DNA of 58,443 nt, from positions 1 through 58,443 of IMG/VR virus record IMGVR_UViG_3300031758_000088; one strand, 5' to 3'. This DNA is from a virus. Taxonomy: Duplodnaviria; Caudoviricetes. Of the stretch, positions 2 to 58,034 are shown one piece after another. The translations under genes and the position numbers were made by a program. Within the stretch, counting starts at the first letter, position 1. Each line of letters begins with the position of its first letter. The notes under the pieces are model-generated. The model did not search any database, was not told the origin of the DNA, and saw only the letters and a program-made list of their open reading frames with translations.

Positions 2-3000
2 GACCGCCGGGTCTCCGTGAGCTGCCAGAGGAGCCAGAGAGGCAATCAGTCCCTTGACCTTGGTGTCGATGGTGGTGACGCCGTTGCGCAGGACTGGGAT
101 GCCGCCGTTGCGATCACCCATACCCATGGCAGAGGCTGCGATACCCGCTCCAAGGTCAGACATCAGGGCCGCAGATTCTGCGCTCTGGTCTGCGAGGAGG
201 GCTGCACCGCCCATCTGCTCGGCCCTCTTCTTGTCGTAGACCGACATCTGGTTGTAGCGGTTGAGGTAACGCTGACGGAAGCTGGCTGCGCTCTGAGGAG
301 AGATGGCAGAAACCATGCGCTCAACAAAGCCTTTCTCTTGTCGTTTAAACGTTGTCTCACCGATACGGTCGCTGATGTTCGTTGGGATGTTTGGCAGGCT
401 GTATTTGGCCTTGCTGCTCATCCGGGTGAACTTCTCCATCGCCTTCTGTTTGTTGGCATAGGAGAGAGGCTCCACCTCTGCGATCATCAGCACCGATGAC
501 ACTGCGTCATCGTATTGGGCAGTCAACGCCTTGACTGGAATGGACTTTGCATCTTCGGACCGCAAGTGAATGTAAACGGGAACTTCACGGTAGCCGTCCG
601 CGTGCAGCGCCAGCATGCGGTGACGGCCTTCGTGCCCAGTAATTTTCCAGTCTCCATTTTTTTCCGACACAGATAGAAATGGAACTTGGTCGTAAGCCTT
701 CAGCCTCTCGACATCAAGCGGCTCCTGCTCTCGGCGCAGTCTGTCATACGTGTCGGACGATGCCGTGGCGTTAACAAATTCAATCGGGTTAACAAGTGCA
801 AGGTAACCCTTGGTCTTGTTCTCTGCGTCACTCTGGGTGTACATGGATTCATTCCACAACTTCTCAAAGCGATCATCAGAGTAGCGCACCTTCTTCAAGC
901 TGTAGCGCATGTCCTTGGACTCGCGGCTGAATTCACCAATGTTGCCCGTGACGGACTTAACCTGCTCTGCTTTAAACACAGCAAGGTTCTTGTTGCCGTA
1001 CTCCTGCACGTAGAACGAATCAAAGCCAAACGACTTCAATGCGTCCTGAACAATCGGGTCTTCAATCGTTGACCACAAACCATTTGAGATGTCCTTTTTA
1101 AAGGTGCTGGCTTTGGAGCTGGACTTTTTAAGGCGGACAACGGGGTCAGAGCCGCTCAGCTTTTGGTCGGCAATAATTTTCTCCGCAACCATGGCGGCGT
1201 GTTCGCTGTTCTCGTAGTCGAATGGCGTCTCTGCGCGAACCCACAAGGGGTAGATTCGCATCTCGTCAGTGGACTTGCCCTCATCCTTTGCGCGGTCCTC
1301 TGCAAACTGCTCAGCAAAGTCAGGATCGGGGCTGACGAAGATTGGCTTGCTCTCAAGGAACGTGGTGAACTCGGATGCGGAGCCGTGGTACATGACTTGC
1401 GGACGACCCTCGTCCATGATCTGGCTGCCACCAAAGAAGAGTTTGAACTCCTTGGTCGATGGAGGGGCCTTGTCATATGCGGCATCTTCCGCCTCTTTTG
1501 CGGAGGGGAAGCTGGTGCGGAGACTGAACTTCCCAGTCTTCACGGAATGCTTGCCAATCAAAACTGCGTAGTCTTGTGATGCGGCTTGGTTTTTGACCAA
1601 GTAGCCATCAAAGCCAGCCCTCTTAACATTGCGCTCCCAATTGCTTGCGCGTTCTGCGGACGAGTCGCCCTTGGCGTTCTTGATGATTTCAAGAGGGTCT
1701 GTTTTGGTGTCGTACAGATTTTTCAACCTGATGACGTGAGGAGTGCCGCCAACACCAGCCTCGGGCCGGACTCCCTTGCCGTTGTCAACGTAGAAATAAA
1801 TTCGGCCACGAATGTCCGAGTTTTCTTTTTCGTTTAAACGCTCACTCTCCATTCCGCGCAGACCGGTGCCGTGGAACTCGGAGATGAGTGTTGGGCGTCT
1901 CTCTTTGCTGAAGTGGACGCCGACAGCGCTTACCGATCCTCGCGTTGGCGTTCCGTATTCTTCTGTTGGCTGGCCGAAGTCAACCGCATTACCGCGCTCT
2001 CGACCTCCGAGGCGAGCAGCTCCTCTGGCGTCAATCCATTTGTCTCTGAGCGAGATTGCTTCTTCGGAAATGGCCTGAAGACGGCGACTCCCTTGCCCCC
2101 GAACATCTGCCCCGGCTTCTCCTTGAATCTTTCCACTGTCGCCATATCGTGTTTCCTTTAAGTAGTCGCTTCTTGTGTCGGGCCAAACGAGTGAACTGTG
2201 GAATGTCTCCGGGTCGGAGACACGAATCTTTCCATCGTAAGGGAATGATTCGACAGCATCGATGATGGCCTCATGGTATTGAGCATCGGTAAGGGTGTCA
2301 ACGTTGTCGTTGTATGCAGAGAAGTTGCCGTACAGCAAGGCCCCATCACGCAACGTATCACCATCCGCCTGTGGGACGTTCTGCGCAATGTGTTGACGCA
2401 ACTCGCTTAATTGATCCGCAGTCATGCCCTCTGGGACAACAACCTTCACAAACCCAGCCTGATCGCCAGAGCTCTTGTTGTCCTCATCAAAAGCAACCAT
2501 TGCCTTTTGGTCGAGCACATAACCAAGCACCCGGGCAAGCTCGTCAAGCTCTTGCTCTGTGGCCTCGTCTGGGGCTTGAACAATGATGTTGGGGTTGACC
2601 TCGCCCTCGTAGGTGCCCGTAGAGAACTCGTACTTGTAACCCTTGAGTTCGAGCTCAGAGAACACAGAGGACACCACCCTGTTGGCAACGGCCTTGGTTG
2701 CGTTTAGACGCTCCGAAGGCGTCATCTGCCTCCACTTCTCTGCCGAGATGTGGTCAGGGTTCGGCGCTACCTCTGCGACTACTCCTTTGCGGAGGGAGAA
2801 CTTTTCTCCATCGAGTCCACGAGCTTCATCAGAAACTGCGATCTCCGTTCCGGGCTCATCCCTGCCGTCAGGTTTTTGATCGAAGACCACACTTGGTCTT
2901 GCTCGTCCAGAACCCTGATTGGCTTGGGCGATGATTGCTTCTTCGTATCCGATGTCATCTGCTTTTCTCCCGCTCAGTTTTTCATAAAGGCGTTTCTCAT

Positions 3001-6000
3001 AGTACCAAAGGGCGGCCTGAATGTCAGCCAGACTGAGGTTGATTCCTTCTCCACGCAGCAAAGCTTGAGCCTTGCGTGCTGCGTCGTACATGAACTTTCT
3101 GTCGGTGGCTGTAAACGGAGCCTCCTCCAGCATCTCAAACTCGTTCTTGTAGATGGTGTTTGCCATCTTCTCAAGGTTGTGTTCAAACAGCAACTGCTCG
3201 TAGGCATCACCAGCCTTCTCTTCGGCAGCTTTAAACCAATTTTCTTTTGCGGCCTTTTTGGATGGCTCCTTCGCCCCCGCCAAATGCTCAAGCTCGGTTG
3301 TCCAACCGTACTCCTCATACTTGTTTCGCAAAGGAATGGTGGCGGCAGTAACTTCATCCCGAGTGGCATCGGGCTGTTCCATCATGTCTCGGAACTTGTT
3401 GATGGAGGCTTCTGTGGCCTTGGGGATGAGCAAGCCGCGCATGCGATTGATGGAACGAGTCCACCACAAATCCATGGTCAGGTAGCCCTCTGAGCCGGAA
3501 AGGTTGGCGTAGAACGCGCCAAGCTTAGGTCCAAAGTAAACCGCTGCCGCTGGCACAACAGTGTTGGCGAGATAGCTGCCATCCGTCTCTTCGCCCATTT
3601 CTCGTAAACGGGCGTTCATTTCTTTGACGGTAATTTCTTTGAGCAACACCTTCTCAAAGTCTTGACCATACTTGCTCAACAAGTCTTGGATGACTTTCAA
3701 GTTGTTTTGGAGCGCGGTTGGACGACGATTGCCCATGGCAACCAATCGCTTGCCGTTACGAAGCTTGCCATACAGCTTGATGGCGTTGTCGATGTTCTTT
3801 GCAACTCGCTCCCCGTTGGATGTAACGGCAACCAAAGCCGAGAACACCGAACGGGCATGCTTGTTTGTTCCAAGCTCCGGGAATCGCTTGGCAAGACGCT
3901 TAACAGCATTGGGGTAGTTGTTGGAATACCAACCCAAACCAGTGCCAGTCTTGGTTGATGTCTGCAACTGATGCGCCACCTCATCGGCGATGGCTTCAGC
4001 AATCCGAGTTGACTCGTCTTGAGTCAGTTTGTTGCGGTCCATTGCACCAAGCTGGTCAAGTGTCTGCTGGTTAAGCGCCTTGGCAATGTCTCGCACGTTG
4101 TTAAAGCGACCGCGAACCGCATCAGTGTTTAAACCAAGCTCTTGCTGCGAAACAGCAGTCTGCTTCTCCATCAACTTGCGGGTTGACATGGGTATGCCTT
4201 CGCCAGCAAGGCTGTACTTTGGCTTTTCTTTTTTCTCGGTAGAGGGTTTGGCCTTCGGTTCCTTTTCCTCTTCGGCCTTCTCTTCTGGCTTGGCTTTTGG
4301 CTCTTCCTTCGGAGCAGTCTTCTCTTTTGGCTTGCGGGACTTCAACTCACCACGCTCAACGCGCTGGAACACATCATCCGCAGACTCAAAGCCAGCACCA
4401 CGCAGGGCTTGACCAAAGTTCATGAAGAAGTTCTTCAGCTTCTTGAACAGCGCAGCAATCATGCCGGGAGGCGGTGTGGCTCCACGGTCGTAAGCACCAA
4501 ACGCATCAGCGATGGCTTCTTCAATGATCTCTTCTTGAGTCAGGCCAATCTTCTTGTAGGCATCCAGACGGCTCATCGTCACAGGCTTGCCGTCCACCTC
4601 GATCTCGGAGGTCTGGTCTTGGAGGTACTCCTTGATCCACCTCTTGTTGGCTTGCTCAGTCAGGGCCTTCCATTGCTGCGGGGTGAAGAACTCCAAGTCC
4701 TTCAGCGCATGCAGGGACTCATGGCGCATGGTTTGGATGGGGTTGGCCTCATCCAGAGAGACCTGAATCAGCTTGTCGAGGTAAGCACCACCCGCGTTGT
4801 TCTTGATCTGCTCAACAACGTTTACACCCACATCGCCAAGGTTGAACTTGGCCAGCATAGGCTTGAGCTTTGACTCAAGCTCCTGCGTGCGGGCAGCAAC
4901 TTCAGCTTGTTTAAACACCTGAGGATCGCGCTCGCGCAGCGTGGCTTCGGCCTGCTCCAGAGTTGGGAATACCCCAATTGGCTCAGCACCACGGTTAACG
5001 GTGAACTCGTTCTGCACGTCAGTGCGGGAACCGATGGGGGTAAAGCTCAAGGGGGCGGAGTAGCTGGCAATCTTGTCGTTGATGTCCTGAATCTTTAAGG
5101 CGGCCTCCTCCTCCTTTTGGGAGAGAAGGGCCTTGGCTTGGACGTACTCATCGGTGTCAGTCTGGCCCGTGGCCTCCATGACCTCAAGCTTACGCTGCTC
5201 ATCCTGAATGGACTTGCTGATCTTGTCAGACTCAGCCAAGAGACGGGCTTGCTCCTCCTGACGAATCTCGGTCAGGGACTGAATCTTCCTCTCCACCTCT
5301 TCTTGGGAGGCAACGGAGGTCAGAGGCTTGTCTGAACCTTCGGCAAAGATGCCAAACGACTCAGGTACGTCTCGGCGGGAGATTTCTCTGCGGGTGGCTG
5401 TGTAGCCACCGGGGAACTCTGTTGGGGGCTCTACGGGAGCTTTCTCTGGGGCTTCAGCAGAAGGCGCGACAGGCTCGGCTTGACCGAAGCCTTTGCGGAA
5501 CTCTTCCTTCTCCTTCTCAAAGGCATCCACAGCCTCAGGAGGCTTGGCCTCAGGACGCACCATCGCGGCAATGGGGGCAGCGCCCAGAGCGCCTGTGAGC
5601 GCTTCTTGGGTCGCAGCACCTGCCACGCCTTTAAACGTGTCTACGTCGTACCCCGCACGCTGCAATGCAACGTTCTCAGCGACCTTCTCTTGACCGCCTT
5701 GAGCAGCCTCTGGGACAGATTCCTTGAGAACTGATTCGCCAACCCTGCGAGCCATGCCGGGGGCTGCTCCTGCTCGGCCAGCCTTGGAGAACAACTCTTC
5801 AACACCCTTGGAGCCAGCAACATAACCAAGACCGGCACCGAGGGCGATCTGGTCAAAGTTTCCACCGAAGTACGACTGGGCTGCGTCAGCCTTTTGCTTG
5901 GCAACCTCTGGGTCTACGCCAGCCTCAATCTCGGCCTTCAGCACGCCGTCATAGATGGAGCCTTTGACAGCGCCAGCACCTTGGGCGGTACCAATAACCT

Positions 6001-6538: not shown

Positions 6539-8244
6539 TGCACTCCGGCTTCTGCCTTAAATTTGTCTGCGGCTTCTTTTGTCGGGAAGTCGTATGTCTT
6601 GCCGCCAGCCGTAACTGTAAACGAACCTCCGCCGCCGCCCTTGATTTTTTGCTCCAGAAGCTTGAGGCCAGCCATCCGTTCATCACGAAGCTTACCCGGT
6701 GGCAGTTGTAGCGCAGAGCCAAGTTGCTCAGCATATTGCTTAGCCATGGCGGACTCAAGCGGGTCTGGCTTTGGCTCTCCACGTTTAAAGAGTGAGAAGC
6801 TTTCGAGCAGGGCGGCAGCCTCTTTTGGCTTTCCTTCTGCCTTGAGTGCCAGATACTGCGCAAGGTACTTCATGTCACCGCTGCCAGCATCTGCCGCACG
6901 AATCTTGGCAATCTCCATTTGGCTCAAGCGGTCCAGCTCGGACTGAATGCGGCGCTCATCCACATTCGCAAGCTGAGCCAAGGTCTCTGCACGGGACTTC
7001 AGGCGCTCTTGGTAAGAGCGGTTGGCAGCGTCCATGGACTTGGCTCGAGCACCATAAATCTCCTTGGCACCCTCGTATTCTTGGGTGTCTGCGGCTGTGT
7101 AGAGCTCGTTCATGCGCTTCTCAAGAGCCATCTCTTCTGCGCGTTTGCGGTCTTGGTTGGCTGTGTAAGCGGGAGCCAAGCCAGTGCCTCCCTTGTATTG
7201 AGCGGCCTGACCCCAGACACGGATCAAGTCATCCAAGCCGGATGGACGCGTCTTCTCAAAGGTTGCACGTTCCTGATCTGCACGGGCCTTGCGCTCTTCA
7301 TAGCGCTTGCGCATGTTCTCCTCCAGCATGGCTTGAGGAGACAGAGCGTTTTGCTCAGCAATGATGCTCTGAGGCGTTGGCTTGACGTTGGGCTCATTCA
7401 AGGCTGCGTCTGCTTGCGCAAAGTAAGGGCTGCGGCTTGCTGCGGCAGGTAGGCCTGTTTGTGCTGGTTGTGCAGCAGGACGAGGTGCAGCCTCAGGCCG
7501 AGGCGCTGGTCGCTCAACCCGGCGAGGAGGAACGGCTGCTTGCGGTCCTGCCATGGCTGTGGCTTGAGCCTCAGAAACGGAGGCTGGGCGCTGTGGTGGC
7601 AGTTGTCGAGCGGGGGCTTCAGGTGCTGGCATGCCTCCTGATGTCTTGAGTTGCTCAAGTTGTGCGCGTGCCGCCTCGGCTTGAGGCGCTCCAGCGCGAG
7701 TCAGAAATTCCACTTTGCGCTCAAGCTCCTGTATTGCTCTTTCCCTTCTCTCTTTGTCGCGGCCAAGTTCAGCAGCCTGACTTGACAACTCTTGCTCCTC
7801 GGCACTTGCTGTGCCCATGGTGTCCCCGCCATTGCTGTAGCCGACGATGCCACCGGGTTTAAACGCAAAGCGCACAGGCACGGAAGTTAAACCTCCGCGA
7901 GCCATCATTGCTGGCGCTTCGGGTTGATCTTCGGGCTGGGGAATGCCAGCGGGAACTGGTCCGGGACGCTGCGCCATAGCCATCTGTTGCTGCTGTTGCT
8001 GCTGCTGCATGTTGTTTGCAGCCATCAAGCCAGCCTTCTGCTCGATCTGCTCTTTGACGCTGGGCTGCTCACCCTGAGCGCCACCCATCATGTTCTGCAT
8101 GCGCTTGTTTAAATCCATCTTGGCCTGCAACGTACCGGTCGCAATCCAAGGTGGAATGATCCGTGGATCAAAACCATCGGCGTACTTCTTCAACTCTGTG
8201 ATTGGCAAATCGTTTGCCAGAGCTTGTGCTTTAACGAGGTTCAT
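6535..8244 (-). CDS. Internal virion/ejection protein
   Basis: 569 aa; Q/A/P-rich plus coiled coil; MARGG/FKPGG/YSNGG motifs; position in ejection-protein block. Confidence 0.7.
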   Translation of the reverse strand: MNLVKAQALANDLPITELKKYADGFDPRIIPPWIATGTLQAKMDLNKRMQNMMGGAQGEQPSVKEQIEQKAGLMAANNMQQQQQQQQMAMAQRPGPVPAGIPQPEDQPEAPAMMARGGLTSVPVRFAFKPGGIVGYSNGGDTMGTASAEEQELSSQAAELGRDKERRERAIQELERKVEFLTRAGAPQAEAARAQLEQLKTSGGMPAPEAPARQLPPQRPASVSEAQATAMAGPQAAVPPRRVERPAPRPEAAPRPAAQPAQTGLPAAASRSPYFAQADAALNEPNVKPTPQSIIAEQNALSPQAMLEENMRKRYEERKARADQERATFEKTRPSGLDDLIRVWGQAAQYKGGTGLAPAYTANQDRKRAEEMALEKRMNELYTAADTQEYEGAKEIYGARAKSMDAANRSYQERLKSRAETLAQLANVDERRIQSELDRLSQMEIAKIRAADAGSGDMKYLAQYLALKAEGKPKEAAALLESFSLFKRGEPKPDPLESAMAKQYAEQLGSALQLPPGKLRDERMAGLKLLEQKIKGGGGGSFTVTAGGKTYDFPTKEAADKFKAEAGVQ

Positions 8245-10121: not shown

Positions 10122-13100
10122 TTAGCGTAAGAGGTTCAGCAGGTCATCTGCCGTGATGTTCTCCGCCAGCAGGTCATCAATGTACCCACCTGAGGCGATT
10201 TTAGTTTTTTCTGCTGGGTTTGTCGAAGAAGCCATTTTGAGCTTCTGCGTCCCGAATGGGTCTCCGAACGGGTCACCGAACGGATCGAAGTATTCCATTG
10301 CGCCATATAGCGGGGTGCTGACCTGCTGGGATTGCTGGAATGCCTGCGGCAATTGCTGGGCCAAGGATTGGGCACTTTGCTGCCCCTGCGCCACAACCCC
10401 GCGCACATTTGCGATCTTGCCCTGACGAGCAGCTTCTTCTGCTGCCAGTCTTTGGCGCTCGGCTTCTGCTTTTTTGGCCTCTTCTTCCCGGGCCAGTTGC
10501 GCCTTCAGGTCCGCCTGACGCTGAGCTTCGTTGGTTGCCAGTTGGCCGTACAGACCAGTGGGCCCAAAGGCGGAGCCGACCGGAGCACGCCAGTCTGTGT
10601 TTACACCGCTGACCACCTGAGTCAGGAAGTCGATGTCTGCCTGAGTGATTTGCTTGTCGCCAGTCACGTCGTAGGTCAGGTCCATGCTCCGCTGACCGCC
10701 GAGCATCTGGTTGAGCGCGTCGATGTCCGCTTGAGTGGCTTGCCGTCCCTGAGTGCCAACCAAGCCCTGAAGCTGCTGGTTCTGGGTGTTGAGCTCGCCG
10801 ATAGCTTTCTGCGTGGCCTCTTGGTAGGTATCACCCTGCTTCACCAACTCATCAATTCGAGCATCTACCTGTTCGCCAAGGCCAGTGATTTGCTCTTGCG
10901 TCTGCTTAGCGGCCAAGTCAATGGCTGACGCAAAGTCCAAACCCATATCCGCCATGGCGTCAGCAAGGTCCTTTTGACCCTCTGTGAGTGCGTTGTACTT
11001 GTCTTGTACGTCCTTGGACAGCGTGTCAATTGCGCCAGTGGTTTCTTTTTGTGAAGACTCCAGCGTCTTGTAGATTCCAGTCGCTTCTTTCGCCTCATTG
11101 ATGTTCAGTGTTGCTGGGTCATCCTTGACAGAGGGAGCACCGACAAGGCCCGTCAATTCTTTTTGAACAGACGCAGCAGCATCCTCACCTCGCGCTGCCG
11201 CATCGTCGGCTGCTTTGTACAAGCCTGTTGCAGGAGTGGTTTTGGTGGCTGGGCTGCCAATCACCCCCAAGATTTGAGTGTCCGTCAGACCCATGGCCTC
11301 AAGCTGACCGATGATGCCGGTAGCCTCGGCATCTGCCCCACCGGGAGAGCCAATCAGCTTCTCCAGAGCATCGACATCCGTTTGCACAGCACCAACCTGC
11401 TCCGTCGTCGCCAAGTCTTTGGTGGCAGCGGAGATGGCTGTATCCAAGTCCGCTGGGGTAAGGCCGGGATTTGCCGTCATGTAGTCGGTGATGGACTTTG
11501 TGACGTCTGCTGCGGACAGGCCGGGGTTGGCCGTCATGTAATCCGTGATGGACTTGGTGACATCCTCTTTGGTGATGCCTGCTGGGAACTTGATGTTTGA
11601 GATCGCCTTCTCAATGTCCTTCTTGGTGGCGAAGTCCTTCGTCGCCGTAGAGATGGCGGTGCTCAGATCGGTCTTGGTCAGACCGGGATTGGCCTTCATG
11701 TAGGTGGATATGGCGGTTTCCACATCGGTCTTTGACAGTCCGGGATTGGCCTTCATGTAGTCAGAGATCGCAGTCGTTACATCTGCCGGAGTGACGTTAG
11801 TAATGGAGCCAAGCTGGTCAATGATGGAGTTGTACCGTGCGGCATCCAAGTTCTCTGTGGCCTTGCCAGTCAAGCCAGTCTGGTCGTACTGACCAACCAA
11901 CTTGTCAATGTCAGCCTTTGTGGGATTTTTCAGGCCAAGCGCAGCGTAAGCGTCTTTGGCTTCCTGCTCTGTCACCGTGCGTGCGTTTGCATACGTTCCA
12001 ACTTCGGACTTAACGGCGTCCTGCTTGATGTTTGCGCCTTGGCGCACAAACTGATCCAGCTCTTCTTTGTTTGGCTTGTATCCAACGTCTTTGAAAAACT
12101 GCTCAGCTTCTGCGCGTGTCACTTGGCGGGGCGCAATGTAGTCTTCGATCTTTTTCTTTGCGTCCGCCTCTTTAATTTTTCCAGCAAGGGATTTGGCTTC
12201 GTCGGCGGTGAGGTTGGTGTACCCCAAGTCGCGCATCATTTGCGCGGCCTCTTCCGCAGTGGTAGCCAGCGGGTCGTATTGCGCCTCCAGTGCTTTTAAG
12301 GTTGATACCTCGTCTTTTTGTCCAACAAACGAATCAATCTCTTGCTTTGTTGGGTTGACGTACCCAATATCAATAAGCGCCTGCCGAACCTCATCCTCCG
12401 CAACCACACGGGGGTCCATGTATTTTTGGATTTCTGAAGCCAACGCCGGGTTTAGCAGCTCAGCCTTTCCGCCAGTCACGGCAGAAATGTCGGCGGCACT
12501 GGCCTTGAATCCAGAGTCGGCAAACATTTTGCTTGCGGCCAAGTACTCCGCTGGCGTTGTTTCGTCCAAACCCTGCTGCCGAATGGCGTCCCCACTGAGT
12601 GCGCCTTTTGCGTCTTTGCCAAGCACAAAAGCGGTAGAAACTGCGGACCCGCCAAGGCCACCCTTCAAACCGGCATCAATAAACCTGTCCAGATTTTGCT
12701 TGGTGAAGAAGTCTTTGTTTTCCGCAAGAAAAGATTCAGCCGCAGCGCTGCTCATCTCTTGGAGAATTTCGGTCCCGCCTTCTTTTACAAAAGCGCTTCC
12801 AGCCTCTTTGGCGGCATTTTTATACCAAGCCCCAATCACCTGCTCGACCGGAATCTTCGACAAATTTAATCGGTCTACGATGGCCGACGGAAGAACGGAG
12901 TCAAGCGCCGCATTAAACCCGCCAACGACGGTTGATATTGCCAAGTCCTTCAAATCCACCTTGCCGCTTTTTGCGTCATAGACGTTCTTGAAAACTTCAG
13001 GGACGTTCTGTGAGGCGCTTGCAGCCAAGATGGCTGGTGTCGTAAATTTTGCAGCCACCGCCAAACCGGCAGTGCTTGCAGCAGCTTGCGCCGCTGCAAT

Positions 13101-42680: not shown

Positions 42681-42711
42681 TTGACACCTGTTTACACGAT
42701 AGTGGTATCAT
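42681..42711 (+). promoter_or_regulatory. Early promoter TTGACA-19-TATCAT (extended -10) with GTTTACAC in spacer
   Basis: Hexamers at 42681 and 42706; TGn before -10. Confidence 0.6.
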
Positions 42712-43421: not shown

Positions 43422-43483
43422 TTTCAGCCTGATGCCCTGCCGGGCATTGGAGTGCAATCCGTTTAAACACCTGAAAGGAACCT

Positions 43484-43798
43484 ATGCCTACCATCACCCT
43501 GCGCCGCAAGGACGGCTCTGAAATCGAGACCGTCAAGTCACACCTGCTGGTCTGCCATGCTGGGTCTGTGACCCACACCCTCCACCTGCACCGGGACAAC
43601 CTCGGCTTCTGGGCTGTGTCTGACCCCCGCTCTGGCGGCAAGGTGCTTCACGTTGTCGGACAGTTCAAAGGGATGCCCGTTGCCAGCAAGGGCATGACCC
43701 TGCGTGAGATTCGTGGCCTCGCCCAGCAACAGATCGATGCCCTCATTGAGCGTGTCGGGTCTGATCGTTTCAACACCATCTTGACCCCTTCGGTTTAA
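43484..43798 (+). CDS. Early hypothetical protein
   Basis: AAGGA SD; W.VSDP.SG motif. Confidence 0.7.
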   Translation: MPTITLRRKDGSEIETVKSHLLVCHAGSVTHTLHLHRDNLGFWAVSDPRSGGKVLHVVGQFKGMPVASKGMTLREIRGLAQQQIDALIERVGSDRFNTILTPSV

Positions 43799-43810
43799 AC
43801 CCTTTACAAT
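43781..43810 (+). promoter_or_regulatory. Promoter TTGACC-18-TACAAT with GTTTAAAC in spacer
   Basis: Followed by CACTAGCA, also found after the 42681 promoter. Confidence 0.6.
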
Positions 43811-43831: not shown

Positions 43832-44410
43832 ATGACAATCAACAACCGTGAAGACTGGCTCTCTGCCGCCGTCTCTGAACTGCGCCCCTTCTTTGATGCG
43901 GTGTGCTCACCCTTGCCAACGAACGTTCGTGTTTCGTGCGGCTTCCCGTCCAACGCCAAACGCAGTGGGGCCATCGGTGAGTGCTGGGCAGACACCGCCT
44001 CTGCTGATGCAACCTTCGAGGTCTTGATCAGCCCTGTGCTGGATGACCCCCTGCGGGTGTTCGATGTGTTGGTGCATGAACTCTGCCACTCGACTGCCGG
44101 GGCCATGAACCACGGGGTCAACTTCCAGAGCATCGCCCAGAAGATGCATCTTGAGCCCTCTGCTGGCCCCAAGGGCTGGAAGGCCACTGGCCCTGCCGCC
44201 TCATTCGTCCCCACCTTCGGGGCAATCGTGGACTCGCTCGGCCCTTACCCTCACGCCGCCCTGACCATGAACACCAAGAAGGTGCAGACCACTCGCATGC
44301 TCAAGGCTGTGTGCCCCTCTTGTGGCTACACCGTGCGCCTGACTTCCAAATGGGCCGCTCTTGGCCTTCCCTCTTGCCCTGTGGACAGCGATGTCCTGAA
44401 CCTTGTTTAA
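43832..44410 (+). CDS. SprT-like zinc metalloprotease with C-terminal Zn ribbon
   Basis: LVHELCH..HG..F; CPSCGY..CP. Confidence 0.8.
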   Translation: MTINNREDWLSAAVSELRPFFDAVCSPLPTNVRVSCGFPSNAKRSGAIGECWADTASADATFEVLISPVLDDPLRVFDVLVHELCHSTAGAMNHGVNFQSIAQKMHLEPSAGPKGWKATGPAASFVPTFGAIVDSLGPYPHAALTMNTKKVQTTRMLKAVCPSCGYTVRLTSKWAALGLPSCPVDSDVLNLV

Positions 44411-44423
44411 ACGGAGAACTGCA

Positions 44424-45881: not shown

Positions 45882-45888
45882 GGTTCAC

Positions 45889-47499
45889 ATGAACATCGAA
45901 ACCATTCTCTCTCGCCCCTCCGTGCGTGGCCTTGAGTTCCGTCTGGGTCTGGAGGCCTTCGCCCACAAGGTGGGCAACTCTCTGGGTCTGCGCCGTGTGT
46001 CTGTCTACTGGCGGCATGATGTCCAGACCGCTGGCATCAACTCGGATGGCAACCTGTACCTTGCTGGCATCCCTGATGACTCCACGGTGAGCCGTGCGCT
46101 GGTGGTCAAGTATGCGGGTTATGTGGTGCATGAACTGTTGCACCACAAGTACACCGACTTCCATGCAAGAGGTGATAACGACTACATCCGCACCCTGCAC
46201 AACGCCGTGGAAGATGGCTGGATCGAGAACACCGGGATTGCCTCTGGTCTGCTCGGCAACATCGGCCCCCTGCTGGGTGAGTTGATCGACACCATGACCC
46301 GTGAGGCATTGGCGACCGTCAAGGATTGGAACGATCCCCGCCAGTACCCCTACATCCTCGCAGTGGCTTGCCGTAAACACGCCACTGTCAAGGTTCCCTG
46401 CAACCCCCGCCTGACTGCCATCTTTAACATGGCGGCGGTGAAGTGCGAAAGCGCAACGTCCAGCACCGACACCTTGAAGATTGCTCTGTGGGTTTACGAA
46501 CAGATCAAGCAACAGAGTCAGAAGCCCGACAAGCCCAACGACAAGCCCGATGGTCGCCCCGGCAAGCCCAAGGATGGCCCTACAAATGGTCAGGATGGGC
46601 CTACAAGCCCCGATCAGGGTGAGGACAAGGGTAAGGGTGCGGAAGAGGGCAAAGAGGCTCCTGCGGCCCCTGATGCGCCCGTCCAATCCCCTGTTGATGT
46701 CGAGGCAAGGGAGGTCGAGCCCAAACTGCCCAGCGGTGGGGTGATGGGCAACTACACCTCCGAGCAAATCCGAAAGGGTAGCGGTTGCCTTCGGGACACC
46801 GAGCGGGATGGTCTGGAGACTGCCCCCATCCCTGCAAAGCTTCGCTATGAGGTCAAGCGCCTGTTCGACAACTCGGGTCTGACTGAGTTCAGCCGCAACC
46901 GCAAGGCTGGTGTGGTCAACGTCCATGCCCTGCCATCTGTGGCCACTGGTAACGACCGTGTGTTTAAACGCCGCCTCGATGTGGAGGGTGTGGACTCTGC
47001 GGTTGTGATCTTGCTGGACATCTCGGGTTCGATGTTCGACAACGACCACGGCAAGAAGCCTCGCATTGGCCCTGCTGTTGCAACGTGCCGTGCCCTGCTG
47101 GAGACGCTTGATGCGGCTGGGGTCAAGACTGCGGTTGTGGCCTTCGGGTCTGCCGTGTTTGAGATCAAGCCCTTCGGCATGAACCATCGCAAGGGCAACA
47201 CCCTGATCGGGCGTGTCAGCCCTGCTGGTGGGACAAACGACTACACCGCCCTGCGCTACTCACATGAGTTGCTGGCACGGCGCAATGAACACCGCAAGTT
47301 GGTCTTCGTGATCACTGACGGGTACGGCAACCCCGGTGGGGTTCGCCAACAAATCCAGTCCGGCAACGCGCTGGGTGTGACAACCATTGGTGTCGGCATC
47401 AAGGCCGATGTCTCTGGCATCTACGGCAACGCCGTGGCAGTGAATGACATCGCTGACATCGGTGCTGTTTCGTTTAAACAAATCAAGCTTGCCGCTTGA
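45889..47499 (+). CDS. CobT-like VWA protein with N-terminal HExxH domain
   Basis: HELLH..NAVEDGWIE; MIDAS DISGS, GGT, ITDG. Confidence 0.88.
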   Translation: MNIETILSRPSVRGLEFRLGLEAFAHKVGNSLGLRRVSVYWRHDVQTAGINSDGNLYLAGIPDDSTVSRALVVKYAGYVVHELLHHKYTDFHARGDNDYIRTLHNAVEDGWIENTGIASGLLGNIGPLLGELIDTMTREALATVKDWNDPRQYPYILAVACRKHATVKVPCNPRLTAIFNMAAVKCESATSSTDTLKIALWVYEQIKQQSQKPDKPNDKPDGRPGKPKDGPTNGQDGPTSPDQGEDKGKGAEEGKEAPAAPDAPVQSPVDVEAREVEPKLPSGGVMGNYTSEQIRKGSGCLRDTERDGLETAPIPAKLRYEVKRLFDNSGLTEFSRNRKAGVVNVHALPSVATGNDRVFKRRLDVEGVDSAVVILLDISGSMFDNDHGKKPRIGPAVATCRALLETLDAAGVKTAVVAFGSAVFEIKPFGMNHRKGNTLIGRVSPAGGTNDYTALRYSHELLARRNEHRKLVFVITDGYGNPGGVRQQIQSGNALGVTTIGVGIKADVSGIYGNAVAVNDIADIGAVSFKQIKLAA

Positions 47500-48475: not shown

Positions 48476-48719
48476 GGTCAAGACGCTGATTGATCCATGC
48501 CCTCACTTCATCAGACAGAGCACAAAGTATGCCCACTTGCTTGAACTGGTTCCAAACTCTCAAACTTCTGCAAACTCTCAGAAGTTTGGACGAGGTGAGC
48601 GGTACATCAAGTACAGCCCAGCCAAACAGTACTGGTGCGTTTACACGCACAGAGACACTCCCCAGATTTACGGGAGATACAACAACGTGATCAGCGCCGT
48701 GTTTTATGCGCTGAAGTGA
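48468..48719 (+). CDS. Hypothetical protein
   Basis: Ends at terminator; start uncertain. Confidence 0.45.
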   Translation: MRKVKTLIDPCPHFIRQSTKYAHLLELVPNSQTSANSQKFGRGERYIKYSPAKQYWCVYTHRDTPQIYGRYNNVISAVFYALK

Positions 48720-48757: not shown

Positions 48758-50450
48758 AAAACATATCCAGATTCTCTGAGTATGTCCCTGCCGTCTTGTT
48801 GAAGATCAGGGTTGTTTCCCCTTGAGTCCCTACCCATCGGTAGCGGCACTTCCAGACAGCCAACTCCGTGTAGTTGTCCTTCCTGTGGATCGTCAGTCCA
48901 CAGTCTGTCTTCGCCCACCACGCCATCGAACCACTGATCGACATCCCGTCTGGACGGGGCTGTTCGACACCAGAGCGATTGATCTTGCTTGGATGGGCGA
49001 CAAACCATGTGTGTACATCATGAGCCATGCAGAACTTCTTGACCTTCGTCAGGATGTCGCTGATGGCATTCGTCTCCGTCTTGTCTGACCCCGGCATTTC
49101 AATGTAGTTGTACGGGTCGATCACCAGACCACGCACCCCCATTCGCTTCACTGCCGCCTTCGCCCTTGTCAGGATCGACTCGAGGGTGCTGGGTTCTTCG
49201 CCGTTGGTGTCGATGAAAAGGAAGTGGTCATTGACCCATTTAAACGCATCCATCTTTGCGCTCTCGCTCATCCTGTCCCGGCCTTCGTAGAAGGATTGAA
49301 ACGTGTAAAGTTCCATGAGGCGGGTGATGTGAACCTCGGGCTGGTTCTCAAACGAGCATATCGCAAACTTCCAATCCGATGACCTTGCGAGATTGACCAT
49401 CAACTGGTCAACGAAATTCGACTTGCCACTGGACGGGTAACCCGTCACCACAGTCATCTGCCCCGGTGCGACTGTGTAGATGTTGTCCACCGACTGATAC
49501 CCTGTGCTGAACCCTCTGCCCGTGCCCTTGGTGTAGAGGTCGTTGATCTTGTCGATGAATGAGGTTGCTTCTGAAATGCCGTTGATGGGGTACGGCTCGG
49601 CGTCATTGATGATCTTGTTTAAACGCTCCACCGGCGTGTCGTCTGCCGTCGGGTCGTCGTCGAGCCATGCTTCGTTTAAATCCTTCCACCCGAACTTGGC
49701 GAGTCTGCATTTCTCTTTGCCGATGCGCCTTGCCAACTCTTCTGCCAGCGCTTGACCGGGAGGGTCTTGATCTGTAGCGAGAACAACGTAGGGTGCGGCA
49801 TCAATGATCTCTCGGGCATTCCAGACAAACCCAAACTTCTTGTCCTCTGTCGGTAGCACCTTGCCATCTGCGACCTTGACGGGAGCGCCACCGGGAACAC
49901 TGACCACGTTGGCGATACCCGCCTCGATGGCTGTCAGGCAATCCATCTCGCCTTCGACAATGATGAGGGGCTGGCCCTTCTCTACCTTATCGATGCCAAA
50001 GAAGTCATGCGCTCCACCTGCGTCTTGGGTGAAGTCCTTGGCCTCGATGCTTCGGTACTTCGCTGAGACCAGCGCCCCACTGCGGTAGTAAGGGAAGCCA
50101 ATGGCCTGTGTTGGTTTGCTGAGTCGGGAGAAGAACTTTTCCGCTGAGAACAGACGCATGGCATCTGCTGTGATCTCCGATATGCCCCGTGACTTGAGCC
50201 ACTGGTAATGTTGATGGGTGAGCCTGTTGTTGACGATTGTTGCGGCAGGGACTGCTGACAATTTGTTCTCCTTGGGTTGCACTGAACCCGATGCATAGCA
50301 GTGATGGCAGTGATAGACAACGGCCCCGTCACTCTTGCGGGTGAGGGTCATGTCCTTGACGTTTTGTTTTCTGCGGTCTGGAGTGCAGAAGGGGCAGATC
50401 ACCCGTGTCGAATCATTGAAGTATGTATCCGCTACGAGCGCTTCGATCAT
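48756..50450 (-). CDS. T7 gp4/Twinkle-like primase-helicase
   Basis: CPFC..CHHC zinc-binding domain, IVEGEMD TOPRIM, TDQD.PG, KDLNE, GYPSSGKS, VIDP, AHP, ISGS. Confidence 0.95.
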   Translation of the reverse strand: MIEALVADTYFNDSTRVICPFCTPDRRKQNVKDMTLTRKSDGAVVYHCHHCYASGSVQPKENKLSAVPAATIVNNRLTHQHYQWLKSRGISEITADAMRLFSAEKFFSRLSKPTQAIGFPYYRSGALVSAKYRSIEAKDFTQDAGGAHDFFGIDKVEKGQPLIIVEGEMDCLTAIEAGIANVVSVPGGAPVKVADGKVLPTEDKKFGFVWNAREIIDAAPYVVLATDQDPPGQALAEELARRIGKEKCRLAKFGWKDLNEAWLDDDPTADDTPVERLNKIINDAEPYPINGISEATSFIDKINDLYTKGTGRGFSTGYQSVDNIYTVAPGQMTVVTGYPSSGKSNFVDQLMVNLARSSDWKFAICSFENQPEVHITRLMELYTFQSFYEGRDRMSESAKMDAFKWVNDHFLFIDTNGEEPSTLESILTRAKAAVKRMGVRGLVIDPYNYIEMPGSDKTETNAISDILTKVKKFCMAHDVHTWFVAHPSKINRSGVEQPRPDGMSISGSMAWWAKTDCGLTIHRKDNYTELAVWKCRYRWVGTQGETTLIFNKTAGTYSENLDMF

Positions 50451-50695
50451 TTGATGGCCCCGGTGGATGTGCGTTTAAACGAGCGATTGGCCGATGCGGG
50501 CTTGGCCTTAAGGTTACTGCGGGCAGTTGTGCCGCCTTTACTGAGAGGGGTCATGTGATCGACATCCTTGCCGTCACCCTTCTTCACGATCCCTTCACGC
50601 TCCAGCATTCTTCGGGCTTTGTTTCTCTGCGCTCTCTTCTTCTTAACCTCGGGTGTGCCATCGTAGTTGGCGTATTCTTGTTTGTAGTCTCGCAT
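50447..50695 (-). CDS. HNH endonuclease-like protein
   Basis: GDGKDVDH..PLSKGG....NL......NR. Confidence 0.8.
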   Translation of the reverse strand: MRDYKQEYANYDGTPEVKKKRAQRNKARRMLEREGIVKKGDGKDVDHMTPLSKGGTTARSNLKAKPASANRSFKRTSTGAIK

Positions 50696-50950: not shown

Positions 50951-50951
50951 A

Positions 50952-51787: not shown

Positions 51788-51793
51788 GGACAA

Positions 51794-51822: not shown

Positions 51823-52005
51823 GAAGAGATTGCGAACGTTCTTAGGGATAAACCCTTAGAGCAAATCAACGTGCCCCAATGCGCCCCAATACAAATCAAC
51901 GCATGTTTAAACGCAGTAGCTCACGCGGTGAGCCTGCACGCACGCGGCCTGCATTTCGTTTACACTGGCGGCGCAGGGTTTCTCCCCCTTGCAGTTGCTT
52001 CTCCT

Positions 52006-52440
52006 TTAACCCCGGCCCTTGCGCTGGGGTTTCTTTTTGGGGGCGATCTCTTCGATCCTCTCTATAAGTATCTCTGCCCTTGGGTTCTCTGGGTCAAGCC
52101 CCCAGTACGCATGGCGCTCCTTGACCTGTCGGTCGTTCTCGTAGATCAGCCCCTGCATCAGATCGAGGATCAGGGACTCATCCAAGTCGGGTCTACGGCT
52201 TGCGTAGTAAATCCAGAGAGTAACTCTCAAGTCTCCCGTCATCAGGTATGGCAGGCGCTTGCACTGTTGTTTAAACATCTCCGAATAGTTCAGCGCCTTC
52301 TGGCTTTTGATGAGCCGGGACATTGACCCGAACTTCACAACCCTTCGGCTGTTGGCTTTTGATGCTGGCTCACCAAAAATAATTTGTGCAAGGGATTGCA
52401 ATTCTGTTGTATCATCACTATCATTGCAGATGTCAGTCAT
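52006..52440 (-). CDS. rusA: RusA-like Holliday junction resolvase
   Basis: PASKANSRR..RPDLD....LD...G.IY.NDRQV...D..NPR.EI; start uncertain. Confidence 0.85.
   Translation of the reverse strand: MTDICNDSDDTTELQSLAQIIFGEPASKANSRRVVKFGSMSRLIKSQKALNYSEMFKQQCKRLPYLMTGDLRVTLWIYYASRRPDLDESLILDLMQGLIYENDRQVKERHAYWGLDPENPRAEILIERIEEIAPKKKPQRKGRG
52396..52424 (+). promoter_or_regulatory. Promoter TTGCAA-17-TATCAT for recombination operon
   Basis: Hexamers at 52396 and 52419; TTACGAACGTTC at 52467-52478. Confidence 0.65.
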
Positions 52441-52459
52441 ACAAACCTCCGGAGTTAAG

Positions 52460-53326: not shown

Positions 53327-53963
53327 CCTGTTGAAGCTGAACGTCAACGACCACGTTGAGAAGAAGCAAAACCTGTCCTACCTGTCATGGGCATGGGCAT
53401 GGGCAGAAGCTTTGAAGGCCGACCCTGCCGCCACGTTTGAAGTGCAGACCTTTGACGGCAAGCCGTACATGGATGTAAACGGCACGGGCATGGTGTGGGT
53501 CACCGTCACCATGTTTGGCAAGCCAATGACATGCTTCCTCCCGGTGATGAACCACCGCAACCAACCGATCCAGAACCCTGACTCCTTTCAGGTCAACACC
53601 TCCATCATGCGATGCATGACCAAGGGCTTGGCGCTACACGGATTGGGCCTGTATATCTATGCGGGTGAGGATTTGCCAGAGGACAACGCAGTAGAGCCTG
53701 TAATCGTCAAGGCCGTGACTCCAGACGGCACTGCGATGGCAGATGTTCAGGTCAACACTGGACAGGCAGATGCAAACGCAGAGTTGTTTGCTGAAGGAAT
53801 GATGACATACACAAACCATTGCACTGACGTCAAAGGTTTAAACAGTTACTGGAAGGCCAATCAGGCTCAGCTTGATGGGCTCAAAGTAAGTCACCCCGAT
53901 CTTTACGACCGGGTTCGCAATCGCTTCGCAGAACTGAAGAAGCAACTTTCGGAGAATAAATAA
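53313..53963 (+). CDS. Single-strand annealing protein (Sak/DUF1071-like)
   Basis: YLSWAWAW, LPVMN.RN, MRCMTK..ALHGLGLYIYAGEDLP. Confidence 0.88.
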   Translation: MSQLDLLKLNVNDHVEKKQNLSYLSWAWAWAEALKADPAATFEVQTFDGKPYMDVNGTGMVWVTVTMFGKPMTCFLPVMNHRNQPIQNPDSFQVNTSIMRCMTKGLALHGLGLYIYAGEDLPEDNAVEPVIVKAVTPDGTAMADVQVNTGQADANAELFAEGMMTYTNHCTDVKGLNSYWKANQAQLDGLKVSHPDLYDRVRNRFAELKKQLSENK

Positions 53964-54722: not shown

Positions 54723-55098
54723 AGCACGAAAGGTGGCGTTGAAACAAGACCGCACAGGTTTTGTCTTGACGCTGGCAATCCACCCTGACGAGTGCCCAGA
54801 AGAGATTCTGCGTGACTTCGTTGGGGCGAGATACGGTTGTGCGCTGGTGCGGATTCAAGATGACGAGTCCGCTACCCCGTACAACAACAGGGTTCAGAAG
54901 GCAGGGATGCTCTGCAAAGAACCCAAGTTCCATGACTTCCTCGAGGTCAACACGGAAAACGAGGCAGCGGTAGAGCTGTGTAAACGATGCGGCGTCGAAA
55001 GCCGCACCGAGCTGCACGGCAATGAAGTGGCCAAGCAAATCTTTGACGATCTGGTCAAGGAATACGAAACATACAAATGGCCAGACGATCCGTTTTAA
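54706..55098 (+). CDS. Hypothetical protein
   Basis: AGMLC..P.F..FL..CGVESR.EL. Confidence 0.7.
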   Translation: MALQFEARKVALKQDRTGFVLTLAIHPDECPEEILRDFVGARYGCALVRIQDDESATPYNNRVQKAGMLCKEPKFHDFLEVNTENEAAVELCKRCGVESRTELHGNEVAKQIFDDLVKEYETYKWPDDPF

Positions 55099-55679: not shown

Positions 55680-55800
55680 ATGGCTCGACGCATCGAAGAC
55701 GGACGTAACAAAAACATGGCGCAAGGCAAGACTGCTTATGCGTTTAAATGGAGCAGCGTATGAAGGCCGTACTCGAGTTCAACTATCCACAGGATACTGA
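55639..55800 (+). CDS. Small hypothetical protein
   Basis: FKW..A..TDV..TW.KAR motif. Confidence 0.5.
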   Translation: MVIPTRSITSPKFKWLDASKTDVTKTWRKARLLMRLNGAAYEGRTRVQLSTGY

Positions 55801-55966
55801 GAAGTGCCGTAGAGCAATCCACGCAGATGAAGCGTTTGACACACTGTGGCAGATAAAGCAACGTGTAAACAAACGCTTCACTCACAAATCTGATCTCGAA
55901 GATGTACTGCGGTATGTCCAACAGATTACTGATGACGCACTGAAGATTTCAGGAGAAGACGTATGA
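55760..55966 (+). CDS. Hypothetical protein
   Basis: GGAG SD; MKAVLEF..P.D. Confidence 0.65.
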   Translation: MKAVLEFNYPQDTEKCRRAIHADEAFDTLWQIKQRVNKRFTHKSDLEDVLRYVQQITDDALKISGEDV

Positions 55967-57968: not shown

Positions 57969-58034
57969 TCTACGCACTGATCGCCGTGCTGATTGCACAG
58001 GCTGTTTACACCTACGTTGTGGCTGGAGGTTCGC

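Follow-up and report, generated by a model that had tools for sequence, protein, structure and literature searches.

Which factor accounts for a short word that a phage genome repeats dozens of times, within its genes as well as between them? The question is raised by a 58,443-bp IMG/VR virus record (IMGVR_UViG_3300031758_000088; hereafter the window, i.e., the whole stretch of DNA that was analyzed), which is judged to be 93% complete, has ~55% G+C and is iterated throughout with the octamer GTTTAMAC, including its palindromic spelling GTTTAAAC. An earlier account made from the letters alone (hereafter the sequence-only reading) had noticed this iteration and had not recognized it as a described element, on which our literature searches agree; it had offered two interpretations, namely sites for a protein or a HIP1-like, methylation-linked palindrome. 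The enrichment of the word, the selection on it, its concerted re-spelling between sub-clades and its co-occurrence with a particular gene make the first of these the best-supported reading, and we propose that the word is probably what the SprT-like protein encoded by this phage, a putative HExxH zincin with a C-terminal zinc ribbon, recognizes on DNA as its cognate site.

Enrichment of the word and selection on its spelling

All 21 exact copies of GTTTAAAC lie at precisely the coordinates given by the sequence-only reading, as against a mean of 0.51 and a maximum of 3 in 100 dinucleotide shuffles of the window; its approximate figure of 18 for GTTTACAC/GTGTAAAC was reproduced as 18, with all 14 of its example positions among them (shuffle mean 0.91, maximum 3). 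Against a third-order Markov model no 8-mer of the window is in greater excess than GTTTAAAC (42 strand-counts versus 2.4, or 17.6-fold), and the wider RTKTAAAC family accounts for 49 sites with 70 oriented matches versus 3.2 expected, i.e., ~1 site per 1.2 kb. The claim of many copies with a single mismatch stands in part: among the 12 one-letter variants, GTTTACAC (~10-fold) and GTTTAAAT (~4-fold) are enriched, whereas the other ten, including the spellings GTTCAAAC and GATTAAAC, do not exceed expectation. The sites are spaced at random (coefficient of variation 0.9-1.2) at a density of ~1 per 1-1.5 kb on either strand, with no regularity; the structural module has word-free gaps of up to 5.8-6.3 kb, and 13 of the 21 palindromes fall within 41320-53836, matching the earlier count for the interval 41.3-53.9 kb.

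Around the word there is only a weak C...G preference at -1 and +8; the flanks thus carry no further information and the word is not part of a longer repeat, and a repeat element or miniature inverted-repeat transposable element was ruled out with flank conservation of one base at most. On the plus strand, T never stands 3' of the 21 window copies of GTTTAAAC and A stands 5' of it only once, at 41320; hence, among the 42 oriented copies just one would yield the -10 hexamer TAAACT, namely that of a gene for a LexA-domain protein considered below. This flank rule is not general, since in the relative G004 many copies are followed by T.

Within genes, the sequence-only reading had held that the word forces disfavored codons and that selection therefore appears to act on the DNA, and it had named a codon-preserving null as the test that might overturn the enrichment. 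The excess persists under that null: 13 intragenic copies of GTTTAAAC compare with a mean of 0.96 and a maximum of 5 in 1000 synonymous shuffles that keep the proteins and the codon usage of each gene, on 61 gene models which are our own crude calls. One of these models (45882-47499), with 2 of the 13 copies inside it, was analyzed in the wrong frame. In these crude models TTA makes up 45 of 1268 Leu codons, with nine TTA preceding AAC, and Phe-Lys is most often spelled TTTAAA (14 of 38). The intragenic copies are read eight times as xxG TTT AAA C and five times as xGT TTA AAC; at 43793 and 44405, where the word falls in the third frame, its TAA terminates the preceding gene. Altogether, 8 of the 21 copies are located outside of genes or where genes meet.

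Checks in related phages, which the sequence-only reading had suggested, bear out the enrichment across the clade. Eighty loci with large terminase (TerL) sequences 80-99% identical to that of the window hold 415 copies in 835 kb versus 9 expected, and five relatives that are 90-100% complete have 23-49 copies each versus 0-2 of the reversed word, which is the control in our oriented counts; relatives at 46-58% TerL identity have 0-3. In alignments of 68-90% identity the exact word is retained in 100 of 193 aligned cases, and a member of the word family in 136 of 193, versus 91,547 of 454,039 (20%) for other 8-mers of the same alignments; the word sites are thus 2.6 times better conserved.

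A directional word and its concerted re-spelling

Judged by its spellings, the word is a directional 8-bp R-T-K-T-A-A-A-C, of which GTTTAAAC is merely the self-complementary version. The evidence comes from three sub-clades defined by TerL, groups A, B and C, with B comprising L045-L053, G315 and G316. All of them share the left-half preference GTTT > GTGT > ATTT, while the right half is fixed as AAAC in groups A and C and as AAAT in group B. In group B the enrichment is 15-fold for GTTTAAAT, 13-fold for GTGTAAAT and 9.5-fold for the palindrome ATTTAAAT; GTGTAAAT reaches 1.2-fold in A and 0.1-fold in C, and double variants show no enrichment in either of these two groups. In the group B record G316, RTKTAAAT occurs 26+19 times versus 3+2 for its control, and at the group B promoter orthologous to that of the LexA-domain gene both flanking copies are of the B type. 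While GTTTAAAC is the PmeI site, GTGTAAAC is no restriction palindrome and was re-spelled as well; thus, the switch looks like a changed reader rather than avoidance of a PmeI-type site. Four of the loci, L046-L049, have no perfect palindrome in 49 kb and an abundance of one-letter variants. An IMG/VR contig with a SprT-like homologue (L367) has no GTTTAMAC and carries CTTTACAG ten times (29-fold); this may be a re-spelled word paired with the divergent C-terminal domain of that homologue.

Co-occurrence of the word with a SprT-like gene

The proposed reader is encoded at 43832..44410 (plus strand) and is a predicted 192-aa SprT-like zincin with a C-terminal zinc ribbon (CPSCGYTVRLTSKW...CP). 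It has HELCH at residues 82-86 plus H94, and alignments of 13 and of 17 homologues show no variation at H82, E83, H86 and H94. Its profile match is to phrog_6361 (E 3.7e-38), a family without assigned function, and the Pfam SprT-like profile (PF10263) matches 9 of 13 homologues at E <= 0.01, with a best value of 6e-6. The fold model is confident (pLDDT 90.7, from a 17-sequence alignment), with the minimal zincin abylysin (4jiu) as its best PDB neighbor (probability 0.97, E 0.045, TM 0.58 on target), after which rank matches of the zinc ribbon to MCM N-terminal domains. The gene is core to groups A, B and C and absent from the non-enriched phages DSL-LC04, 023Pt_psg01, HTVC027P, MinM2 and Ssp-JY39, with only a marginal phrog_6361 match (E 0.0048) in HTVC023P. 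Homologues of 32-44% identity are found in 164 cultured phages with hosts including Arthrobacter, Microbacterium, Streptomyces, Bordetella and Pseudomonas, and the depositors annotate them as 'SprT-like protease'.

As for the word itself, we compared eight unrelated cultured carriers of the gene (Floof, Yang, UNTPL, Persinger, KA2-1, R5C, Dismas and LK3) with six phages without a phrog_6361 match (one of them marginal, at E 0.0048). In six of the eight carriers, and in none of the other six phages, the top 8-mer is the same word (hypergeometric p ~0.009, by our own arithmetic), so that the word tracks the gene, a co-occurrence check that the sequence-only reading had also proposed. The top 8-mer is GTTTACAC in Floof, Yang and UNTPL and GTTTAAAC in Persinger, KA2-1 and R5C; oriented counts over whole records are 39 in UNTPL, 34 in R5C, 20 in Yang, 18 in Floof and 8 in Persinger, all with reversed-word controls of 0, and 15 versus a control of 5 in KA2-1, while the six phages lacking the gene have 0-6 oriented matches, about the level of their controls. 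The actinobacterial phages use the non-palindromic GTTTACAC only, and the hosts of word-bearing phages span Actinobacteria and Alpha-, Beta- and Gammaproteobacteria. When five proteins of the window were tested, the SprT-like protein alone proved common to the eight phages, the LexA-domain protein, an RHH-like protein (see below), the primase and the exonuclease not being so. Further, 53 additional IMG/VR loci with homologues, found with the Persinger and R5C proteins, contain 230 family sites in 736 kb versus 25.5 expected and 24 for the reversed control, a 9-fold excess, and 43 of the 53 have the word within 150 nt 5' of the gene, mostly 15-28 nt before its start. The residue following Q152 also varies with the type of word, being T or S with GTTTAAAC, G in the actinophages with GTTTACAC only and P in group B, a correlation which rests on few independent lineages.

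A preprint on Cluster AZ phages describes the SprT-like protein, suspects a role for it in lysogeny and mentions 'repeat sequences (data not shown)' near its gene, which may bear on the word; the passages of that preprint considered here do not mention a DNA word. Our literature search turned up no publication in which the word is connected with the SprT-like protein or is noted in phages, and no report of protease activity for a phage member of the family.

Several observations weigh against assigning the word to this protein. Two carriers of the gene lack the word, Dismas with 0 copies and LK3 with 1; these are, however, just the two in which the ribbon has decayed, with loss of its cysteines and of the segment GYTVRxTxKW, which is kept in all 11 word-bearing sequences of the alignment, and this agreement counts in favor of the assignment. 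The comparison sets are small and contain some redundancy: near-duplicates are frequent among the 53 IMG/VR loci, which on our reading represent at least ~25 distinct protein variants and not 53 independent cases. In Pseudomonas-type contigs the word is found at only 1-5 copies per 20 kb and there behaves like a local operator, not an array. Within the clade of the window a comparison that left out G003 finds a site within 160 nt 5' of the gene only in the window and in G001, whose orthologous promoter stretch has ATTTAAAC at the same offset in the spacer, 39 nt 5' of the gene, and not in G004, G315 and G316. The Pfam SprT-like score of the protein itself is 17.1 bits (E 0.005), below the cut-off of 25.6; no fold match reaches E <= 0.001, Spartan is absent among the listed matches, and a sequence-profile search finds no PDB chain or solved structure. 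More generally, as far as the sequences go, co-occurrence of word and gene is not the same as contact, the assignment gives no account of why a protease-like protein should need ~50 sites, and the LexA-domain and RHH-like proteins may be readers inside the clade of the window. Finally, a mild excess of the word without a phrog_6361 match is seen in two unrelated records, G310 (11 copies in 48 kb) and G311 (6 in 34.5 kb); these were chosen by a scan requiring two close copies, and the excess is thus partly one of ascertainment. The 48-kb viral record G310 has three GTTTAAAC in direct tandem (G310:C1:1886-1909) and 8 dispersed copies, G311 has variants besides its 6 copies, and neither record has a LexA-domain match.

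Proposed mode of action

The interpretation of the word as sites for a protein was the better-supported half of what the sequence-only reading proposed, given the 2.6-fold conservation, the concerted re-spelling and a co-occurrence with the SprT-like gene that crosses phyla. We infer the physical binding, the word-reading residues, the protease activity and its target, and advance the following plausible scheme. The zinc ribbon of the SprT-like protein would read the word. One copy, at 43793..43800, lies in the promoter or leader of the SprT-like gene itself, 39 nt 5' of the gene and within the spacer of a sigma-70-like stretch TTGACC-18-TACAAT (scoring 10/12; 43781..43810, plus strand), and could provide feedback on the synthesis of the protein; its TAA is also the stop codon of gene 43484-43798. 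Further copies in the spacer or -10 of three more promoter-like stretches (33498, 41320, 42690) would allow the bound protein to shut these too. In this clade the word would have been multiplied to ~49 sites, in genes, at gene ends and in intergenic stretches and in either orientation, and such an array might keep the protein on the phage chromosome rather than on that of the host, a candidate for which has ~5 copies per 3 Mb. The zincin domain, by analogy with the DNA-dependent proteases of the Spartan/Wss1 kind that are switched on by DNA binding, may then act on proteins sitting on phage DNA. The ancestral state was perhaps one or two copies at the promoter of the gene itself, as in the Pseudomonas-type contigs, from which several lineages would have multiplied the word. 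A purely regulatory role, with occlusion of promoters and with the intragenic sites as a reservoir, is equally compatible with the data as a protease role.

A bolder version, which we put forward tentatively and hold to be less likely true than false, is that of a sequence-addressed protease: in phages of four or more bacterial classes, SprT-like proteins would use their zinc ribbon to read an 8-bp 'address' (GTTTAMAC and its local re-spellings). Once bound there, the protease would be positioned or switched on along the phage chromosome, where it might strip host proteins such as silencers, repressors, roadblocks, covalent adducts or defense factors; the copy at its own promoter would limit the level of the protein, and lineages like that of the window would have expanded the address genome-wide. 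Single residues beside the ribbon, such as the one after Q152 (T/S, G or P), could re-program the word.

Were the assignment to the SprT-like protein true, a protein annotated by likeness of fold in hundreds of cultured phages would gain a testable DNA target, with a word that can be read from the genome and natural variants of specificity (AAAC versus AAAT, GTTTACAC only, possibly CTTTACAG). Selection for a DNA word, and not for protein, would then shape the choice of codons and stop codons and the gene junctions genome-wide; the word would be a marker separating phage from host DNA (~1 site per kb versus 1 per 0.5 Mb); and phages of Arthrobacter and Microbacterium would offer harmless models that can be cultivated for a feature first seen in uncultured freshwater phages.

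Alternative explanations

The alternative that survives best, which we nonetheless regard as unlikely, is that another core DNA-binding protein of the clade reads a genome-wide operator array, with the SprT-like gene being only one regulated target. One candidate is a 77-aa LexA-domain-only protein (41079-41312, minus strand), the product of the first gene of the terL operon, just 5' of terL. Its LexA_DNA_bind domain is confirmed by Pfam (E 2e-10); its gene occurs at 90 loci of the clade, and DSL-LC04 and 023Pt_psg01, which show no enrichment, do not have it; in ~35 of the 64 distinct contexts 5' of the gene, the word precedes the ATG by 0-7 nt; and in G001 and G315 its promoter is flanked by two copies ~31 bp apart. 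The wing segment NSI[KR]L has, on our own reading, S, T or A in all group B copies versus K or R in A and C (9 versus 69 sequences), but this change is a single evolutionary event. The other candidate is a 107-aa protein resembling ribbon-helix-helix (RHH) proteins (55109-55432, plus strand; its true start is 29 codons inside the longest open reading frame). By language-model features its look-alikes in the atlas score 0.98 and 0.96, in clusters with RHH_3 in 18% and 44% of members; its AlphaFold monomer model is poor (pLDDT 51.5), and its homodimer model scores 0.57 versus 0.00 for the best control; among proteins of solved structure, 20 of 30 pairs and 1 of 23 single chains score this high. 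The dimer runs agree in at least 93% of contacts with a partner pLDDT of at least 74, and the predicted interface includes residues 6-16; RHH dimers read sub-sites of 7-8 bp.

Both candidates fail outside the clade: neither is found in any of the eight unrelated cultured phages, six of which bear the word; the RHH-like protein has no homologue in 50,697 cultured-phage records and the LexA-domain protein only two 40%-identical matches; and Synechococcus phage Ssp-JY39, the source of one of these two, has no iterated word. Moreover, KPFMTYL, the beta strand with which the RHH-like protein is predicted to read DNA, is the same in all three groups even though the word was re-spelled. The LexA-domain protein would have a more natural target in a separate palindrome, GAACGTTC (often TTGC-GAACGTTC-G), which occurs at 41336-41343, 51834-51841, 52471-52478 and 43921-43928, overlaps the -35 of three promoters including that of the LexA-domain gene, and is conserved unchanged in all three groups. 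It resembles the known half-sites of the LexA type and is probably the operator of the 77-aa protein.

An origin of the word in the host, either as a host-wide bias of the uptake-sequence or Chi kind or as the site of a recruited host DNA-binding protein, is decidedly improbable. The mild excess in G310 and G311, which have no SprT-like gene, would fit it; so would the correlation of 0.81 between the tetranucleotide usage of the phage and that of a Limnohabitans sample, and the DnaA boxes together with the LexA-type boxes noted in the sequence-only reading show that the phage uses host factors. Limnohabitans was taken as a candidate host by way of a fluorescence in situ hybridization probe. 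Five Limnohabitans genomes have 4-12 copies per 3-4.9 Mb, and in one of them 5 are observed versus 8-10 expected under Markov models on 400 kb; the depletion in Limnohabitans relative to the reversed word is compositional under the same models and hence no evidence of restriction avoidance. The densest among 301 family and 401 order genomes of Burkholderiales has ~1 copy per 17-24 kb versus 1 per 1.2-2.8 kb in the phages; these tallies include 1 (G155) and 4 (G344, G519, G607, G690) unpublished genomes with 1-15 copies each, on which the conclusion does not depend. The possibility that the enrichment simply mirrors a host-wide bias, raised by the sequence-only reading as a ground for refutation, was thus put to the test in the sampled Burkholderiales groups, to which this negative applies, and these candidate hosts show no excess of the word. 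Since the word occurs in phages of Actinobacteria and of Alpha-, Beta- and Gammaproteobacteria, no single host factor explains it.

The other half of the earlier interpretation, that of a HIP1-like palindrome made or kept through a methyltransferase or through repair bias on a restriction-type palindrome, has in our view very little chance of being right. It would agree with an exact 8-bp palindrome dispersed in genes and spacers at random spacing and without conserved flanks, and the loci L046-L049 without a perfect palindrome are also of the kind it would accommodate. However, palindromy is not the selected property, the asymmetric GTTTAAAT exceeding the palindrome ATTTAAAT in group B and the actinobacterial phages making do with the non-palindromic word; the change from GTGTAAAC to GTGTAAAT is needless under restriction avoidance; transition variants that decay should produce are not enriched; and the sampled host genomes have no excess of the word. 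Of the methyltransferase families N6_N4 (PF01555), D12 (PF02086) and C5 (PF00145), none was found in six-frame translations of five phage records (the window, three complete relatives and G316), the search covering these three families as encoded by phage. On this evidence the claim of a methylation-linked palindrome finds no support.

An equally slight probability attaches to a transcription signal, be it a stand-alone promoter element for a phage sigma factor in the style of T4 late genes or an orientation-dependent roadblock of the stoperator kind. A 260-aa protein with a Sigma70_r4 domain (E 1.9e-16) is indeed encoded in the part of G001 missing from the window (L086:3077-3859, minus strand), ~36% of sites lie within 40 nt 5' of an open reading frame start versus 19% of random positions, the LexA-domain gene has a promoter whose -10 (TAAACT) is supplied by the word, and 4 of 23 strong promoter-like stretches hold a site versus 0.75 expected, although these amount to two orthologous pairs. 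Yet no conserved partner element exists within 45 nt and -35 hexamers show no excess (15% versus 11%), for which reasons sigma-70 promoters were dropped as a general explanation; about two thirds of the sites lie deep inside genes; and the asymmetric word of group B is placed 21 times sense and 24 times antisense to genes. The sigma-like gene, too, was dropped as the reader, being found only in G001 and neither in the window nor in the complete and strongly enriched G003 and G004; its product shows a marginal likeness (28% over 70 aa) to a sigma-like 'DNA binding protein' beside the SprT-like gene of Microbacterium phage Dismas. An apparent orientation with transcription (148 versus 41 in raw counts) was discarded when dereplication left intragenic GTGTAAAC at 30 versus 29, next to the 21 versus 24 of group B; intergenic sites lean 28 versus 8 in orientation after dereplication.

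Least probable of all is a replication or recombination signal, whether a recognition word of the primase-helicase, which has a Cys4 zinc-binding domain and would be served by ~1 site per 1-1.5 kb on either strand without an orientation rule, or a mark of hotspots or module borders in recombination between phages. In favor of recombination, 13 of 157 clusters of alignment-block ends fall within 20 nt of a site versus 4.9 expected (7 versus 3.0 within 10 nt). Against a signal of this kind, the structural-module gaps reach 5.8-6.3 kb, known primases start primers with a purine while a primer copied from the word would begin with U, the primase is not common to the other word-bearing phages, and the surplus of block ends is slight and no more than one would expect if sites happen to share their positions with variable spacers. 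Block ends near words are found in the window at 33515, 41245, 42214, 42690, 43785, 43805 and 51905; the association is weak: perhaps the words mark the borders of mosaic segments, or perhaps they just happen to lie in spacers that vary.

Genome context and distribution of the sites

The window belongs to a tailed phage. Its genes include those for a large terminase, portal, SU10-type adaptor, capsid protein and small terminase, together with a T7-gp4-like primase-helicase, a RecB-family exonuclease and a CobS/CobT-like pair; a DNA polymerase gene was found neither in the window nor in the part of G001 missing from it. A polyvalent virion protein of >2,179 aa (2-6538, minus strand) with an ART-PolyVal domain (E 1.5e-15) runs off the window. 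The nearest cultured or named relatives, DSL-LC04, the pelagiphages HTVC027P and HTVC023P, 023Pt_psg01 and MinM2, share only 46-58% TerL identity, and a near-identity DNA search of a cultured-phage collection returned no match to the window; close relatives in IMG/VR number in the hundreds, and the public runs containing the window sequence are freshwater, river and lake metagenomes (20 runs listed, none of them of RNA). The 63.4-kb record G003 (L093-L096) has the same sequences at its two ends (~1-3.4 kb and 59.3-62.7 kb), the RHH-like gene being present twice (3060 and 62368) and GAACGTTC recurring in the very same context (260 and 59568), which implies a terminal overlap of ~4 kb and hence a slightly inflated word count for this record.

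Four copies of GTTTAAAC are inside the polyvalent-protein gene, at 343..350 (frame xxG TTT AAA C), 1832..1839 (frame xGT TTA AAC), 4127..4134 and 4909..4916, the relatives having 7-8 word copies in this gene. The next three, at 7857..7864, 23741..23748 and 29108..29115, are inside genes 6535-8244, 21011-25108 and 28574-29269, respectively. The copy at 33498..33505, between the major capsid gene and the next gene, is exact in 11 of 20 aligned relatives and falls in the spacer of a minus-strand promoter-like TTGCGT-17-TATATT (judged by eye); that at 41320..41327, 7 nt 5' of the LexA-domain gene, is exact in 27 of 43 and supplies the -10 of the promoter-like TTGCGA-17-TAAACT of this gene. In the 5' leader of the small-terminase gene, the copy at 42217..42224 adjoins a DnaA-box cluster (42238-42332) between the early leftward and rightward operons; G004 has a four-box DnaA cluster at the equivalent place, ~24.4 kb.

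Around the SprT-like gene, the copy at 43461..43468 is 15 nt 5' of the start of gene 43484-43798 and exact in 10 of 11 aligned relatives, and that at 44405..44412 provides with its TAA the stop codon of the SprT-like gene itself, 11 nt 5' of an ATG of a CobS-like gene. The latter gene has an internal copy at 45215..45222 (exact in 10 of 20 aligned relatives), and the CobT-like gene has one at 46962..46969 (exact in 11 of 13) and another at its 3' end (47472..47479). One copy lies inside the primase-helicase gene (49617..49624; exact in 8 of 10) and one 22 nt 5' of its start on the minus strand (50473..50480). The remaining three are at 51905..51912, in a divergent control region where an alignment block with G001 begins exactly at the site, at 52269..52276, 30 nt 5' of the exonuclease gene, and at 53836..53843, 5' of gene 53963-54280.

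The GTGTAAAC variant is on the minus strand at 4820..4827, 10599..10606, 15969..15976, 17220..17227, 17910..17917, 28778..28785, 35980..35987, 39814..39821, 41511..41518 (3' of the small-terminase gene), 42690..42697 (in the spacer of an early promoter-like TTGACA-19-TATCAT at 42681), 48639..48646, 51958..51965 and 58004..58011, and on the plus strand at 16225..16232, 29692..29699, 41253..41260 (inside the LexA-domain gene), 54978..54985 and 55863..55870. The weaker variant ATTTAAAC, of the ~4-fold enriched spelling, is found on the minus strand at 8107..8114, 38707..38714, 49674..49681 and 55742..55749 and on the plus strand at 42415..42422 and 49238..49245.

Comparison with known systems

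Among the systems in which a short word is iterated, those of the Chi or uptake type depend on over-representation in the host, which is not seen within the sampled Burkholderiales, and T4-late-type elements entail sense placement 5' of genes and a cognate sigma factor in every member, neither of which holds here. HIP1 (GCGATCGC) is a highly iterated palindrome of cyanobacterial chromosomes for which a link to methyltransferases is hypothetical. The window resembles it in having an exact 8-bp palindrome every ~1-3 kb, written into coding sequence against codon preference and without a flanking repeat, but differs in that the word is absent at such density from the sampled hosts, no methyltransferase of the families searched was found, and non-palindromic spellings work equally well.

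In Cluster A mycobacteriophages, gp71 of L5 reportedly acts at ~24-30 stoperator or operator sites. The likeness lies in dozens of copies of one short word, in and between genes, some overlapping the promoter region of a regulator, and in an array presumably read by a single phage protein, which for the window we infer from co-occurrence. The stoperators, however, are 13-bp, asymmetric, oriented with transcription and read by a helix-turn-helix repressor of a temperate phage, whereas the word of the window is 8 bp, free of orientation, associated with a zincin bearing a zinc ribbon, and common to phages of several bacterial phyla. Such Cluster A arrays are cited in passages of PMC11447400, which also describe intergenic repeats of phage TLS and T1-like phages: 21 nt long, 18 of 21 intergenic, oriented with transcription and ~76 nt 5' of start codons. 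As described there, these too are an unexplained iterated word of ~20 copies in a virulent phage that came to notice through k-mer or repeat tools; unlike them, the word of the window is 8 bp, orientation-free and mostly intragenic.

On the side of the protein, Spartan/SPRTN and Wss1 are DNA-dependent metalloproteases, as summarized in passages of the Cluster AZ preprint. As is predicted for the SprT-like protein, they have an HExxH zincin joined to a small DNA-binding module, with DNA binding thought in their case to place or activate the protease; for these eukaryotic enzymes, however, neither recognition of a specific DNA word nor an array of sites is known, while the protein of the window scores below the family cut-off (17.1 versus 25.6 bits) and belongs with phage members for which no activity is known. 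The second-best fold neighbor of the SprT-like model is Thauera CapP (PDB 7t5t), although the match is weak (probability 0.77, E 0.05, TM 0.28/0.21). Proteins of the CapP/IrrE type are DNA-activated zinc metallopeptidases that cleave a repressor. CapP differs in being activated by single-stranded DNA without a known word and in being part of bacterial defense operons; it is like the protein proposed here in being a small zincin, triggered by DNA and aimed at a DNA-bound regulator.

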